Part shown: piece after piece, positions 1 to 22,315 of the stretch
How the letters are laid out: the number at the start of each line of letters is the position of its first letter
How positions within the stretch are numbered: the stretch's first letter is position 1
DNA from: Bilabrum cf. latius
Taxonomy: Eukaryota
Direction of reading: 5' to 3'
Length of the DNA stretch: 64,000 nt
Assembly: GCA_965178125.1 (NCBI GenBank)
Contig: OZ237759.1
Span: 310,001 to 374,000, forward strand
The notes under the pieces: generated by a model
Told to the model about the DNA's origin: nothing
The model's input: only the letters and a program-made list of their open reading frames with translations
Database searches by the model: none
Made by a program: the position numbers and the translations under genes

Positions 1-1
1 A

Positions 2-1030
2 AAACTTAATAACGTTGCCGCCAGCCTTGTTCGTTCTGGTCTTGACGACTTAAGAGTTGCATTAGAAGGAGGAACTGTAAATATGCGTCTACACACTAAG
101 AACGCTGCACTCCAAGTTCCTCTCAGCACCAATTACGCCTACCCATGGGAAAAAACAATTCCTCATGAATTTGTGGGTAATACTGCTTTACTTGCTAATA
201 GCGAAACCGTTGTCAACATTCCCATCATCAGAGAAGACGTTGTTCCCGATATGTTTGTTCCTCATGTTGTGGTCAATCGTGGTGCTGATGATTATGGTCC
301 TGATATAACTCTACCTATTACTCACATAAGTTGCACCGTCGGCAATAAATTCAAACTTCTTGATGATCACAGCACTCGCGATCTTTACGATTTAGCCGTT
401 TCAAATGGTTACGTTGGTAGTTATGCCTAGTTTGCTGGTTTACTACTCAACCCCGCTGAAAGTACCCTTGCCAATTAGGTACTCGCCAATTGGAGCATCT
501 TACCTTTACGCCCCAGTTAGATGCCACTAGATGCCGAATTAATGAGTGGTGTCAAGAAAGAGTTTAGACTCACCAGCCTACAACTCACCATTGCCAACCG
601 CACAGCCAATGCAATCGCAGCCGGCGATTACACCATCCAAATCCCTTTCATGTATGGCGGATACATTGAATTTAAAAATGGACGCATTCAAGCCAAAGAG
701 GTTGTTATTCCAGTAGCCAAAACACTCACCAGCGCTCCTGTGGTCTATCTTGAGGATGACAGCGAACATGCTATTCAAGGCGGACGCGGTGGACGCGGTT
801 GGAAGAAATTCAAGAACTTCGTCAAGAAAGCTACACCATTTGTCCAAAAAGCCAGCAAATTTGTACGCAACCTACCAGGTGTAAACAAGGTCGCTGGTGA
901 TAGTACCGCTCTAGGACAGGTTATGGCTCTTGCGGGGGCTGGAACAACTCACGTTGGCGGTGGGGTTTAGATGGTTGGAGGTCAAGTGATGAGTTCAAGC
1001 TAGGCAGATGCAATGGGAGGTTCTTACTAA
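2..1030 (+). CDS. Virophage major capsid protein, 5'-truncated by the window
   Basis: One frame open from position 2 to TAA 1028-1030 with only TAG interruptions. Sputnik-like MCP motifs LPITHISCTVGNKFKLL, DLYDLAVSNGYVGSYA(Q)FAG, and a Gly-rich C-terminal tail after AIQGG. Confidence 0.85.
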
Positions 1031-1075
1031 TCAATAAATTCATTCTAAATTATATATCTCACTATGTAATATAGA

Positions 1076-2503
1076 ATGTTTGCTGGAAAGCGAAAAAAAG
1101 CCCGTAATTTAAACGAAGTCAGATAGTTGCAACACCTAGTCAAAGCATCTGGTCAAGCCTATCAATCACCCAATGCCCGAACCACAATAATCTCCAAACA
1201 AGGAAAATATATGTACATCCCCAGTTTAAGCGATACCAAACGAGCCGTCTATCGTAACGATAAAAATCAATATATTGTTGCTTTTCGAGGAACAGTTGTC
1301 AGCGATCCTGAGGATCTATTAGACGATGCTCGAATCATTAAAAACACACTTCCTAATGGAAATAGATTTCAACGAGAGAAAAAAAAGGTTGAGGAAATCA
1401 AACAACTTAGCAATGGACAAGTTGTGCTTACTGGACACTCATTAGGAGGTGCTTTAGCCAATTAGATTGGATAGCAATTAGGAATCGAAAGTGTGGGTTG
1501 GAATGCTGGAACAGCCCCTACCGCTCGAAACTTAGTTGGCAACACCATTCGACGATTTGCCACCCAAGGCAAAACCAAAAGTTACAACGTTAGTAGCGAT
1601 CCTATTTCTCTTGGAAATCCTTTTAGCAAACGCATCAATCGCAAAGCTGGTCTAGATCCACACAGTCTTGGAAACTTTGTAATTCAAGGCGGTAAAGCAC
1701 AAACTGATCCCATTATTCGCAAATTCAACTTGTTTAACTTTGCTAAACCACTACTCAAAGTTGCCAATCTTTTAGAATTAGATAATACCTCCAAACAATC
1801 CGTGATTGAACTTAAAGGTTCGCAAACCAATCCCGTTATTTCCTTGTACGCTAGTGATTACGATTTCTTTCAACAACTAACACAAAAAGATATTCCAATG
1901 TTTGTACCACACTTAATCCATCTAGTAGAATTATTGAGTTCCAAAAGTTCTCCCCTTCGACCAGTGGAACTTAAACTAGGTGGCAAACACTACAAACCCA
2001 CAGTCAAAAATCTAAAACAGTTAGAACCCAGAATACAATCTATTATCAGCAAAGACCCTTTTGCCAAACTAGATTTAATCATGTTTGATGGCAAATACTA
2101 CCAAGAAATCACTGTGGTTTACCTATTCGAACCTCTTGCCAATCCCAAGGAAATCCAAACCCAACTACTAAACGATAGTCGGGAATATCGCAAACAAGGA
2201 ATGCGGTACAAAGCAAGTAAACGAGTGATTCAATCCAATAAAGGTACTCTCAAACAACGCCGAGCTGCCCTTAAAACACTCGAAAATCCTAAACTTGCAC
2301 AAATCAATCACACCGCCAACCATTTAGAGGCGTTCTTACGTTTTCCAAACGCAAAGCGTACCTCGCTTCAATGGATAAAACAAGATTTATCCAATGTACT
2401 CACTCGTAAACAACAAGCAGAGGTTAGCAAGTTACTCAATAAAGGAACTAAAGCAAACGTTAAACAAGTTATGGATTTATTAAAGCAATGGAAATTAAGA
2501 TAA
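1076..2503 (+). CDS. Class-3 lipase domain fused to a virophage-type domain (possibly nucleotidyltransferase-like), 475 aa
   Basis: Joins ORFs 1127-1465 and 1493-2503 through TAGs. Lipase motifs IVAFRGT and LTGHSLGGALA; second domain contains GSQ..YASDYDF; VIQGG lies at the junction. Confidence 0.75.
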
Positions 2504-2529
2504 GAAAATAATATAGATTACAATAATAT

Positions 2530-2772
2530 ATGGATATCGATCTTCGAAAGATTAGCCTTAAACGCCTACACGAACTTGTTAAACTCAAGAAACAACAACT
2601 CAAGTAGAGACCCAAATAGAAACTCAGCAACTATAACCTGTTTGTAAAAGAAATGTACCCCGTTATGCGCAAAAAGGACCCCGAGCGATACAAGAACGTC
2701 GGCAATTTTACCAAAGATGCTAGTTCCCACTCGTGGTTTGCCCAGTGGAAAAAAGAAAAGAAAATTGAATAA
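2530..2772 (+). CDS. Small basic protein, HMG-box/YABBY-like, 80 aa
   Basis: ATG 2530 to TAA with 2 TAGs. KLSNYNLFVKEMYPVMRKKDP...FAQWK resembles HMG-box helices. Absent from the supplied ORF track. Confidence 0.55.
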
Positions 2773-2814
2773 TCCTCTGGATACTTACACAGACGAGTGT
2801 GATTTTACAATTAA

Positions 2815-2847
2815 TTCCGTATTAATCGACTTGGTTTTAATACAGAA
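2815..2847. terminator. Conserved 3'-end hairpin (TCCGTATTAA-loop-TTAATAC(A/G)GA family)
   Basis: Imperfect inverted repeat between convergent genes. Related copies at 9352-9384, 15698-15728 and 19163-19195. Confidence 0.5.
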
Positions 2848-2886
2848 ATAAATTAATTTGAGGTTTCAAGATTCAGGATTGAGGAT

Positions 2887-19997: not shown

Positions 19998-20022
19998 TAT
20001 AGTAATCCTTAGAAATTGATTT

Positions 20023-21183
20023 TCATAAATCCAACAGCTCCATTACTGCTCGGTACTACTACTTGTTCAATCGATCGATCTACAAGGAGTACAAGCCGTC
20101 TTTCTTGTTGATAGCCACCTTGGGTCCATGTGGTGCAGGCGATTTGGGCATCATTTTTCCTGCATCACTTTCAATCTCGATCGTAGGCAAGGTGGGCTGT
20201 TTGGAGGGCACTTTGATCTTGATCTTGGGCTTGGGTTTGGGCTTGGGCTTGGGTGACTACAGTCCCAGTACAGGAAGGTCTAATCCTGCACAACCCTCTT
20301 GATCCTTAGTGGTACGGTACTCTTGGTAAAATGCCTTCTATACTTTGTGACTGTGTCCCATGGCACTGCACAGATCCTTACGTTGTTCAGTACTTAGTCC
20401 TCTAGAGATCTAGGAACTCCAAACCTTGCGTACGTCCTAGGGTGCTACGTAACAACCCAACCACTTGAGGCTGTAGGGTTTGACTAGTCTGGAGGTAAAG
20501 TTTCTCTTGCCACTGGTCCACAGTTGTGTATCATCGGGTAGGATTGAGGCAATCTCCACCACTCGGTCGTTGATGGGCATCTCGCGTTCACCGGATTTGC
20601 CAATTGCGACCCCCTTGTCACTGCCGACCACCAACACCTTGCGTTCCAGATCCACTCGGTTGGGGAAAATTGAATTGGTGCTGATGGCTAATTGACTTAG
20701 GGCATTGGGGCGAATGGGAGCAACGTAGTACAGTATGGTCATGAACAGTAAGGCTATCTGTTCGGGTTGCCCAAGACCCCTGACATCCACTGCACCCAAT
20801 CGATCCTGTGCCTGTTGGAGGGTGAGTGGTAGGTCTCTCTTGGGTTGCTCTTGTCGTTCGGATTGGGCTTTATAGGACCAGAGGCTTTTGGCTTTGCATA
20901 GCAGTTGGTAGCGTTGGCTGTTGCACCCTTGGGCTTCGAGGTAGGTGGTCAGGATGTACAGGGCACGGTAGCATCGTAGTGCAGGGTAACTGGCATTGAG
21001 TTGCTTTAGTGCAGTATCCAATTGCTCTTGGGTCAGTGGAGCATCCGCATCACACCCTATCTTGAGTAGAAGGGGGTGGAGTACGGAGCATTCGCGTAGG
21101 TAGTTGCCCAAGGTTTGGGGGTTGGTGTACTGGTCGGGAAGCCATGCCTTGATGCTGATTACTAGTGCTTTGGGTGCGTTCAT
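20023..21183 (-). CDS. Tyrosine recombinase, 386 aa
   Basis: APIRPN (catalytic R), SDKG (K), (Q)DVRK, AMGHS..AFY (H, Y). Read through TAGs to TGA 20023. Confidence 0.75.
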
Positions 21184-21325
21184 ATACTACCCCTAGCCCA
21201 ATATCCTTAAATCATTTTTCTCCAATCGATTTAAGGTTCAATTGGTTGTGGTACGGGTGGGCAACAACAAGAGTAGGACCGGGATTGGGTCCCGACCTCG
21301 GAGCAGGGGGCAAAACAAAGTAAAT

Positions 21326-21411
21326 AAAATTCGGGGGCAGCGGGAGTCGAACCTGGGGGCGGGGAACGGACGGAATGGCTAGCACACACTCTACCACTGG
21401 GGCAGGACACA
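21326..21411 (-). ncRNA. Putative Pol III tRNA-derived element (A box, B box, T4 terminator)
   Basis: The minus strand reads TGCCCCAGTGGTAGAG ... GGTTCGACTCC ... TTTT, but the cloverleaf stems are degenerate. Confidence 0.45.
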
Positions 21412-21704
21412 ATTGATTAAAAAAAGGAAATGTTGTATATTCGTTCATTCAAACAGTCATGTTCCACCACACCCACAGGCATCCGAGAACAATCGTCATC
21501 ACAAACATTCTAGTAGTCCACCAGATACAATCCTCTACATGGGATTCAATCCCGCGAGGGTTACGATAAAGGTTAATTTTACTGTTTCTGTCATTGTTAG
21601 GCATTCATCCACCTCAGCAAAACCTCCTTATTATATTGCAACTATTTCGGACAGGTGACCAAAACGAGGTGCAGTCAGGAATCAGAGAGGGTTTGGGGCG
21701 ATAA

Positions 21705-21902
21705 TGCCAGTAGAAAAAAAGTAAGGCTGAACTATTTTGTTCAAAGATGGTTCTCGTTACTTGCTTTGGAACAGAAAGGAACACAAATTATTTGGAAATG
21801 CATTTTACCAGAATTACTTTATAAAGGAAAAGCGGAAAAATGCATTTCTGTACGAAACCAACTGATTTTCTGTATGTGACCGAGTACTGGCATTTTGTAG
21901 GA
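21705..21902 (+). repeat. ~200-bp non-coding repeat, copy C
   Basis: Direct repeat of 18711-18913 within the terminal non-coding region. Confidence 0.9.
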
Positions 21903-22257
21903 ACGGAATAGAACAGTGAGTGATGGTAGGTGGGTATCCACTGGGCGTGTGTGGTAGTGGGATGTGCAGAGGACTGGCAGAGGTCTTGCATCACGCGCCG
22001 TGCACGTGCCTCCCCGCACCCAGCGTGAAACCCCCAGAGAAGTAAATTATATCCATTCGGGAAATCAGGGGAACCATGGGGAATCACGGGGAATCCACTG
22101 GAACATGGGAGAATCTGTTCGTGACCAGCAACACTCACTCCCGGACCATCTCCCTCCCGAATTATCACGTACAGAATAACCCAGTCAGAAATTTAGACTC
22201 TTGTACGTTTTATGGAAAGTAACCCTTTTAATTAAAAGTAAAATCCCCGATATTCTA

Positions 22258-22315
22258 CTCTCGCAGTCCATGTGAAACCCCCTGTATACAGGGGGTTTCA
22301 CATGGACTGCGAGAG
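22258..22315. repeat. Perfect 58-bp palindrome at the presumed right end of the element
   Basis: CTCTCGCAGTCCATGTGAAACCCCCTGTA|TACAGGGGGTTTCACATGGACTGCGAGAG, with no spacer and no mismatch. Confidence 0.97.

Follow-up and report, generated by a model that had tools for sequence, protein, structure and literature searches.

The window analysed here is a stretch of 64,000 nucleotides from Bilabrum cf. latius (assembly GCA_965178125.1, contig OZ237759.1, positions 310,001 to 374,000 of the forward strand). Its left part, from position 1 to approximately 22.3 kb, carries a capsid gene, a packaging ATPase gene and an integrase gene, and is probably the greater part of a mavirus-like virophage; host genes follow on the right. 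The two parts differ sharply in composition: GC content lies at 0.34–0.48 within 1–22 kb (~40% for the element overall), is 0.51 between 22 and 24 kb and steps up to 0.58–0.69 beyond 24 kb. Read with the standard code, the left part holds short open reading frames (ORFs) only, the longest of 336 aa. Read with TAG as a sense codon (translation table 15) it resolves into a compact gene map: 22 ORFs could be traced, with 81 in-frame TAG codons, no in-frame TAA or TGA, and a coding share of 87% over positions 1–21233; 17 of these ORFs end in TAA and five in TGA. A preliminary description of this DNA had reported genes free of frameshifts and of TAA or TGA breaks, and had proposed retranslation with table 15 as a check; with 22 of 22 traced ORFs open, the check bears the report out.

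The gain in coding capacity is specific to TAG. When stop-to-stop frames of at least 150 aa were summed over positions 1–21900 under four codes, the total came to 7765 aa with TAG as sense and 1875 aa under the standard code, while the totals with TAA (4247 aa) or TGA (4005 aa) as sense fell far below that obtained with TAG. Homologues indicate what the codon means. Two close ones – P0001, a relative of the major capsid protein (MCP), and P0093, a relative of a 386-aa protein discussed below – carry glutamine at 9 of 12 sites where the element has TAG, the other three being T, K and D; an integrase 38% identical to that of the element has glutamine at three of six aligned positions, and two distant homologues of the ATPase give no information on the matter. 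A further MCP relative, P0002, ends exactly at a TAG site of the element's MCP, just as expected of a gene called with the standard code where TAG is in fact sense. That TAA genuinely terminates translation in the element is seen from the MCP, which ends on the same C-terminal residue as P0001, and from 17 ORFs that end in a TAA directly before intergenic motifs. TAG accounts for approximately one-fifth of the element's glutamine codons and, to judge by this share, the element would have long been resident under a TAG = Gln code.

The host reads TAG in the same way. The first gene on the right is symplekin-like (23684–31264, minus strand; Symplekin_C 5.4e-8), a 2526-aa frame with nine TAG as sense and TGA as its stop, and a TAF6-like ORF (TAF6_C 5.2e-22) also lies on this side; the element is contiguous with these host genes in the assembly. 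Three host frames (2526, 2961 and 1939 aa) stay open only if 9, 22 and 12 TAG codons, respectively, are read through, and the stop codon is TGA in all six host frames checked for it. Since host frames (symplekin, TAF6) likewise need TAG as sense, host and element share a code: as read from these frames, the host nuclear code is one in which UAG alone specifies glutamine, with UAA and UGA as stops. UAG-only reassignment to glutamine is rare in eukaryotes; the parts of PMC11687900 that deal with it list Iotanema spirale, Protocruzia tuzeti and some phyllopharyngean ciliates. Amoeboaphelidium, considered as a possible host, is described in passages of PMC11687900 and PMC5304391 as UAR = Gln, which does not fit, since TAA is a stop here. 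ARAGORN and Rfam find a single tRNA, for methionine (CAT), across the 64-kb window. We also observed that the 2961-aa host ORF (35806–44691, plus strand) contains two long tandem peptide-repeat arrays, one with units of ~22 aa (PPKPSG...KRAGTANK) and another with units of ~22 aa (ADKADADAGAAPIQEPPTTTPA).

The MCP gene is cut by the start of the window, which retains the C-terminal 342 aa (2–1030, plus strand; five in-frame TAG). Pfam assigns the fragment to the virophage family MCP_V20_C (5.9e-12), as the virophage assignment in the preliminary description leads one to expect. Among structures in the PDB the mavirus MCP (6g45, 4.5e-7) ranks ahead of Sputnik V20 (3j26, 2.7e-5), and the full-length relative P0001 (574 aa, 70% identical to the fragment) gives the same order (2.2e-15 for mavirus, 2.8e-4 for Sputnik V20). 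From sequence comparison, then, the protein is a V20-family virophage MCP with a predicted double jelly-roll, nearer mavirus than Sputnik; the earlier label 'Sputnik-like' was imprecise, given that mavirus scores better both with the fragment and with P0001.

Outside its own cluster, this MCP has distant relatives only. With P0001 as the query, an exhaustive HMMER search of 1.84 billion representative proteins returned 90 matches at E<=0.001, 26 of them at <=1e-10, and the best full-length match outside its own cluster is 27% identical – a distance that sustains the earlier view of a distinct lineage. The ten nearest MCP clusters are composed of metagenome or Logan proteins with no informative name (one is a 'hypothetical protein', another an empty entry). 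A single-protein scan of IMG/VR with the MCP fragment found no relative; loci in that collection were reached with a five-sequence MCP alignment, and 12 virophage loci were taken for comparison. The nearest of those found are L001 (IMGVR_UViG_3300012272_000093), L002 (3300028413_000157) and L003 (3300028370_000222). Neither the MCP relative nor the ATPase found a match by tblastn in a collection of phage genomes.

The second morphogenesis gene encodes a packaging ATPase of the FtsK–HerA type (6399–7409, minus strand; eight in-frame TAG), recognized through virophage homologues and through its fold. Searches with tblastn found homologues in four of the 12 IMG/VR loci (L003 7.5e-21, L002 5.1e-17, L005 5.3e-10, L006 3e-8), and Walker A, Walker B and a GR motif are conserved among them. 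An AlphaFold2 model built from a four-sequence alignment (predicted local distance difference test, pLDDT, 67) was searched against BFVD: first among 500 matches is the mavirus FtsK–HerA ATPase (2.5e-19), followed by an uncharacterised protein of Pithovirus LCPAC001 (1.4e-12) and, at ranks 3 and 4, by YSLV5 (2.4e-11) and Sputnik V3 (3.2e-11). By sequence the protein gives nothing significant in Pfam, NCBIfam or the PDB, with sub-threshold P-loop matches in Pfam and NCBIfam only, and it has no relative among 5.8 billion called proteins. With homologues in four of 12 loci and mavirus as the best fold match, the packaging ATPase named in the preliminary description is secure; so too is its prediction that standard-code gene calling misses the element, as seen in the absence of this ATPase from the called proteins and in the truncation of P0002 at a TAG site.

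An integrase of the rve (DDE) type lies at 10039–11244 on the plus strand (rve 1.1e-16). It is 38% identical, at 5.5e-58, to the integrase that adjoins the MCP in L001 and L003, and in the PDB it matches the Ty3 integrase (2.5e-12) together with foamy-virus integrases. Its C-terminal 100 residues have no match in Pfam; all 15 of the weak PDB matches to this part are chromodomains (E 0.015–0.4), which faintly suggest a C-terminal chromodomain. A 970-aa replication protein is encoded at 15734–18646 (minus strand; 11 in-frame TAG). It comprises a primase-like N-terminal part and a superfamily 2 helicase of the UL9/CyRepA1 type (Herpes_ori_bp 2.2e-20, CyRepA1 1.6e-33). Within its first 300 residues, matches to Prim-Pol (0.041) and PriCT_2 (0.13) are sub-threshold, collinear and in the expected order, and give a slight indication of a PrimPol domain. 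No DNA polymerase family, the protein-primed DNA polymerase B (pPolB) included, was found among the 22 ORFs, and the left part outside the window could hold one.

The 386-aa ORF at 20023–21183 (minus strand) is harder to place. It is 64% identical to P0093 (410 aa), and both proteins have R158, K190, R252, H277 and Y286; the spacing of these five shared residues resembles that of the R-K-HxxR-H-Y signature known from lambda Int, Cre and XerD. Also in favour of such an enzyme is that mid-GC EMALEs, the endogenous mavirus-like elements discussed below, are reported to encode one. In an Atlas feature search with P0093, 18 of 30 matches fell in unnamed clusters of Preplasmiviricota viruses and the other 12 in a set headed by a cluster of bacterial proteins, 42% of whose members carry Phage_integrase, which is a lead only. 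The ORF was negative in Pfam (at E up to 10), NCBIfam, PHROGs and the PDB, its hhalign probability against lambda Int and Cre was 0.1%, and its AlphaFold model (pLDDT 35.9) was too poor for a fold search. We lean, by a modest degree, towards a tyrosine recombinase. The preliminary description had named three enzymes with more assurance: an rve–chromodomain integrase, of which the rve part holds (1.1e-16) and the chromodomain, with no Pfam match, is doubtful; a PrimPol–UL9 helicase, in which the helicase is clear and the PrimPol part sub-threshold; and a tyrosine recombinase, which was not confirmed, no library having recognized the ORF.

Several of these genes share their upstream sequences. 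The motif TTAAATCATTT, with at most one mismatch, is present in 15 copies against 0.79 expected, all within 11.2–21.2 kb and most of them arranged as inverted pairs between genes. One arm, AAATGATTTAAG, is found 25–45 nt upstream of the start codon in eight genes, the helicase and recombinase-like genes among them. We infer that the motif may act as a shared promoter and/or hairpin terminator for the transcription machinery of a helper virus. A repeat of ~200 nt in three copies (15414–15606, inverted; 18706–18921; 21705–21909; repeat families D5, D7, D10, D12, I1, I2, I4 and I12) brackets the helicase gene and the pair formed by a methylase gene and the recombinase-like gene, the inverted copy lying downstream of the helicase. 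In addition, a 51-nt upstream segment is duplicated at 18650–18700 and 21183–21233, that is, upstream of the helicase and recombinase-like genes. The ~200-nt repeats round the helicase gene could constitute a replication origin. Each of their copies contains two copies of the 10-nt palindrome AAATGCATTT; separately, one contig from the source run shows a 285-nt tandem duplication in the area of these repeats (joint from 21972 back to 21688).

With its own primase-helicase and integrase, the element might be thought an autonomous polinton-like virus or transposon that has a virophage-type capsid and is independent of giant viruses; moreover, the upstream motif was matched to no giant virus promoter. 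We consider this improbable. The MCP falls in a Pfam family specific to virophages and matches the two virophage MCPs of solved structure, virophage ATPases occupy ranks 1, 3 and 4 of the 500 fold matches, and no DNA polymerase gene is present in the 22 kb seen.

Evidence on copy number and mobility came from a single run comparison, made with Logan contigs rather than reads and at a likeness threshold of 90%. In the source run, X1, contigs that match the element exactly have depths of 24.3–36, and variants with ~1.5% differences in 10–14.6 kb reach depths of ~180–230. The host flank is a single contig, from 22287 to beyond 30000, at depth 11.9. Depth is near 69 for 22007–22286 (an estimate from bin means) and drops to 11.9 from 22287, so that the multicopy sequence ends at the centre of a perfect 58-nt palindrome (22258–22315; inverted repeat I10, 29+29 nt, 100%, no spacer) that forms its right edge; the ~22.3 kb end given in the preliminary description agrees with this drop. 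The palindrome could be the terminus of the element or its target. Its motif GTGAAACCCCC recurs at ~22027.

Two runs filed under other organism labels, X5 and X7, carry the host flank. In X5 the flank is one contig from 23086 with 0 differences over 6.9 kb (23086–30000), and nothing of 10001–21339 is present; in X7 the flank is covered by short exact contigs, and within 10001–21339 there is depth in two bins only (11.9 at 13336–14002 and 1.4 at 14003–14669). There are, then, strains with an identical flank that lack the element family at 90% likeness. A further run, X6, contains the element (exact contig 19532–22301) at a depth too low to show the single-copy flank. The element is thus a multicopy family in the source run, and its absence from X5 and X7 suggests recent mobility. 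To this extent the earlier proposal of a potentially active element of a distinct lineage is carried forward: the signs of recent mobility (many copies, absence from X5 and X7) and the divergence of the MCP (27%) both favour it.

These same data bear on whether the element is integrated at this place at all. Free or episomal virophage DNA might have been joined to a host contig at the 58-nt palindrome during assembly: element depth (24–217) lies above the host value of 11.9, no short-read contig crosses 22287, and strains with the identical flank are entirely without the element. Such a chimera seems to us quite unlikely. The host contig of X1 starts with the right arm of the palindrome, which repeats the final 29 nt of the element in reverse complement, so that element and host sequence share an exact end; the depth of the element is uneven (~200, 33, 24), unlike that of a single free genome; and virophages with an rve integrase are known to integrate, as described in parts of PMC8547959.

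The remaining genes of the element make up a varied set. After the MCP comes a 475-aa protein (1076–2503, plus strand) whose N-terminal part is a lipase/esterase-like alpha/beta hydrolase with the motif GHSLGG (Lipase_3 2.4e-4, at 21.4 bits against a cutoff of 22; PHROG esterase/lipase 4.4e-5). Its C-terminal half is shared with metagenomic virophages: residues 255–410 match ORFs of L002 and L004 (2e-7 and 4e-6), and the L002 ORF precedes the ATPase. A fusion of a dioxygenase-like domain, of the 2-oxoglutarate and Fe(II)-dependent type, with an FkbM-type methyltransferase is encoded at 2887–4020 on the minus strand (Methyltransf_21 4e-9, TIGR01444 7.4e-12). The dioxygenase-like domain matches Tet_JBP at 2.9e-6, below the Pfam cutoff, and has an HxD motif seen by eye; in the PDB its only match is a Tet-like dioxygenase, with an E value of 0.58. 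This domain shares the element with a cytosine-type DNA methyltransferase at 19251–19997 (minus strand; phrog_757 6.1e-12; tblastn to virophage locus L008 1.4e-21) and with a relic, the C-terminal fragment of a C5 cytosine DNA methyltransferase at 11666–11977 (plus strand; DNA_methylase 5.3e-14, profile positions 271–322 of 324). The relic, of which the C5 methylase end alone is left, is the one methyltransferase fragment that the preliminary description had excepted from its intact genes. The dioxygenase-like and methylase genes hint at a modification of virophage DNA bases.

Between the fusion gene and the integrase are a Pro/Glu-repeat protein (4060–4704, plus strand; an ORF under TAG = Q, with 12-nt repeats of family D1), a 176-aa beta-rich ORF (4760–5290, minus strand) with nothing significant in Pfam, the PDB or PHROGs, and a 209-aa conserved virophage protein, possibly a P-loop protein (5350–5979, plus strand; matched by tblastn in L002, L001 and L003, with E values from 3.6e-7 to 2.6e-5), whose homologue in L003 has a weak match to AAA_33 (0.0049). 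The 176-aa ORF was considered as a penton, for which a PDB search and a comparison with the ORFs in penton position of L002 and L003 gave no support. A SET-domain protein (6024–6398, plus strand; Pfam SET 2.9e-6, 28.1 bits against a cutoff of 22.4) precedes the ATPase gene; beyond the latter lie a 478-aa low-complexity basic/acidic protein (7452–8888, plus strand; an ORF under TAG = Q with no family match in Pfam or PHROGs), a repeat protein with a 69-nt period (8926–9336, plus strand; repeat family D8) and a RING-finger protein with a D8-type repeat (9445–9978, minus strand; zf-C3HC4_3 1.8e-4, below cutoff).

A variable cargo block extends from 11238 to 15357, with repeat families D2–D4 and copies of the hairpin motif between its genes. 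Besides the methylase relic it comprises small ORFs (11315–11629, 12073–12576, 12649–12960 and 14090–14593), a RING protein (13356–14036, minus strand) and an ORF (14649–15299, minus strand) labelled HNH-like from a motif read by eye. Run contigs include copy variants of this block and a variant with a deletion of 576 nt. The latter, a form of 11994–12646 found in X6, lacks precisely one unit of 576 nt, flanked by two copies of a 77-nt intergenic repeat (joint 12004 to 12581), a loss which argues that cargo gene cassettes are gained and lost by recombination between these repeats.

The tRNA-Met (CAT) gene also lies within the element (13122–13192, plus strand; called by ARAGORN, and by Rfam as tRNA at 48 bits, 3.5e-7). 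Met (CAT) is the commonest tRNA in one metagenomic virophage clade, of which the complete members have an integrase, according to the portion of PMC6905037 that describes it. A second T-arm-like sequence, GGTTCGATTCC, follows the gene at ~13246 and received no tRNA call. A tRNA-like GC-rich stretch was noted at 21330–21400 on the minus strand, with a D-loop-like AGTGGTAGAG, a T-arm-like GGTTCGACTCC and a CTA triplet, then TTTT. As a suppressor tRNA it was rejected, there being no ARAGORN or Rfam call and, by eye, no acceptor stem; the stretch, situated upstream of the gene for the recombinase-like protein, could represent a degenerate tRNA or a piece resembling a short interspersed element.

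That one methylase gene is reduced to a fragment and that duplicated intergenic units abound in the cargo region might suggest a fixed, decaying endogenous relic that no longer moves or makes particles, an explanation we think as unlikely as the assembly chimera, given that 22 of 22 traced ORFs are open at 87% coding density, that identical or ~98% identical copies exist at several-fold host depth, and that the family is absent from two runs with a flank identical over 6.9 kb.

The nearest counterparts in the literature are the mid-GC endogenous mavirus-like elements (EMALEs) of Cafeteria. As described in parts of Hackl et al. 2021 (PMC8547959), these have 30–50% GC in a high-GC host, lack pPolB and have a longer primase/helicase, and all have a tyrosine recombinase beside the rve integrase; one type carries a DNA methylase, and most insertion sites are strain-specific. 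The gene combination that the preliminary description called unusual is, going by those parts of PMC8547959, one that mid-GC EMALEs already show. Set beside what is described there of EMALE types 5–8 (Cafeteria burkhardae), our element is alike in being a low-GC virophage in a high-GC protist with an rve integrase, a long primase/helicase ORF, a DNA methylase, no pPolB in the window ORFs, many copies per genome and insertion that differs between strains; EMALEs have a predicted tyrosine recombinase, for which the element has an unconfirmed candidate. It differs from the EMALEs, in a comparison by description only and with the same parts of the source, in its 81 sense TAG codons, in an MCP whose nearest relative outside its own cluster is 27% identical, in an ATPase gene that is separated from the MCP gene and oppositely oriented, and in the tRNA-Met, the SET gene, the dioxygenase–FkbM fusion and the RING and repeat proteins. 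The gene architecture is therefore already known from mid-GC EMALEs; what sets the element apart is the sequence distance and the adaptation to a TAG code.

Mavirus itself provides the best structure match for the MCP (6g45) and the best fold match for the ATPase, and shares with the element an rve integrase and a glycine-rich C-terminal tail of the MCP; MCP identity, however, is only in the 20–30% range. Mavirus has pPolB, a shorter helicase and the standard code and, to our knowledge, no tyrosine recombinase. Sputnik is alike in its V20-family MCP (3j26, 2.7e-5) and in the V3-like fold of the ATPase (3.2e-11), and is a weaker match than mavirus for both proteins; it has a tyrosine-type integrase and, as far as we know, no rve integrase. 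The metagenomic loci L001–L003, the nearest found, are 28–31% identical in the MCP, 25–27% in the ATPase and 38% in the integrase, and share two more ORFs with the element. The integrase adjoins the MCP in L001 and L003, and L002 runs ATPase, 182-aa ORF, 292-aa ORF, MCP. Unlike the element these loci follow the standard code, their ORFs being open when translated with table 11, and in the parts of the three loci that were searched there was no match to the element's helicase or recombinase-like gene.

The adoption of a host code by an integrated virus has a precedent, because polinton-like elements of Streblomastix strix use the TAA/TAG = Gln code of their host, as set out in parts of Bellas et al. 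2023 (PMC10120064). Those elements and ours are alike, so far as these parts describe them, in being integrated, capsid-bearing DNA viruses on a host's deviant stop code; theirs is an MCP of the Metamonada polinton-like group and ours of the V20 type, and theirs have both TAA and TAG reassigned, whereas in ours TAG alone is affected and TAA ends 17 of 22 ORFs. An ochre-suppressor tRNA is mentioned for a metagenomic virophage in a portion of PMC6905037. A search of the full-text literature for virophages in which TAG is reassigned gave none; it did not extend to supplementary files, which might list more.

Virophages form the class Maveriviricetes and are built around a four-gene morphogenesis core, of which the window shows two genes. 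The penton gene stands directly before the MCP in L002 and L003, and likewise in EMALEs according to parts of PMC8547959; from this position we expect penton and protease to the left of the window. Pfam detects no protease family among the window ORFs. Taking the evidence together, we regard it as likely that a mavirus-like virophage is integrated here in the nuclear genome of a GC-rich eukaryote that reads UAG as glutamine, and that positions 1 to ~22.3 kb are the larger share of it, on its right-hand side. Five ORFs with matches in IMG/VR virophage loci, those of the ATPase, the integrase and the methylase among them, add weight to this assignment.

A number of observations weigh against it, or at least against parts of it. 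The left end, with penton, protease, terminal repeats and target-site duplication, lies outside the window, and no window ORF matches the ORFs found in the penton and protease positions of L002 and L003. Every formal test of the 386-aa ORF as a tyrosine recombinase was negative. No assembly-independent contig bridges the junction, the X1 host contig starting at the palindrome centre, 22287; palindromes, it should be said, break short-read graphs anyway, as at 22287. The right boundary is ambiguous, being 22287–22315 by depth and 23085 by strain comparison. X5 (21854–22243) and X7 (21862–22238) carry a segment of this region at single-copy depth, and X5 is without 22244–23085, which is single-copy in X1; 21854–23085 thus appears as a mosaic, possibly an older remnant or a second small insertion. 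The four best run matches are one sample, which is probably the assembly's own source, and the high depth of the variants could in part reflect free virophage DNA rather than integrated copies. There were no RNA runs among the matches of the run search, and no giant virus sequence in the window, and helper dependence is pure analogy.

If the element is a virophage of this kind, its life cycle can be sketched. By analogy with mavirus and EMALEs, the rve integrase would have inserted a linear genome, and the integrated copy would stay silent as long as the cell is free of giant virus infection. Once a giant virus has infected the cell, its transcription machinery might read the shared upstream motif AAATGATTTAAG; the primase-helicase would replicate the element's DNA in the virus factory, the ATPase would pack it into capsids of MCP and penton, and the virophage released would lower the yield of the giant virus. 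A bolder proposal, which we put forward tentatively and at somewhat short of even chances, is that here, for the first time, a virophage lineage is locked to a host with UAG = Gln, that the code acts as a host-range barrier, that the invasion was recent and the element is active now, and that the host may be a eukaryote not so far recognized.

Endogenous virophages are thought to be an inducible defence of protists against giant viruses, and few host systems are known. The element described here would add to the range of the mavirus/EMALE type a host whose code, a rare one, assigns UAG alone to glutamine, and it illustrates how annotation with the standard code hides such elements. The same ribosomes must translate host, virophage and helper virus; a giant virus with a recoded stop is therefore predicted. 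The genetic code as a limit on the host range of viruses becomes, with this, a testable idea and, should the lineage indeed prove locked to UAG, the code would be a host-range barrier for the whole three-partner system.

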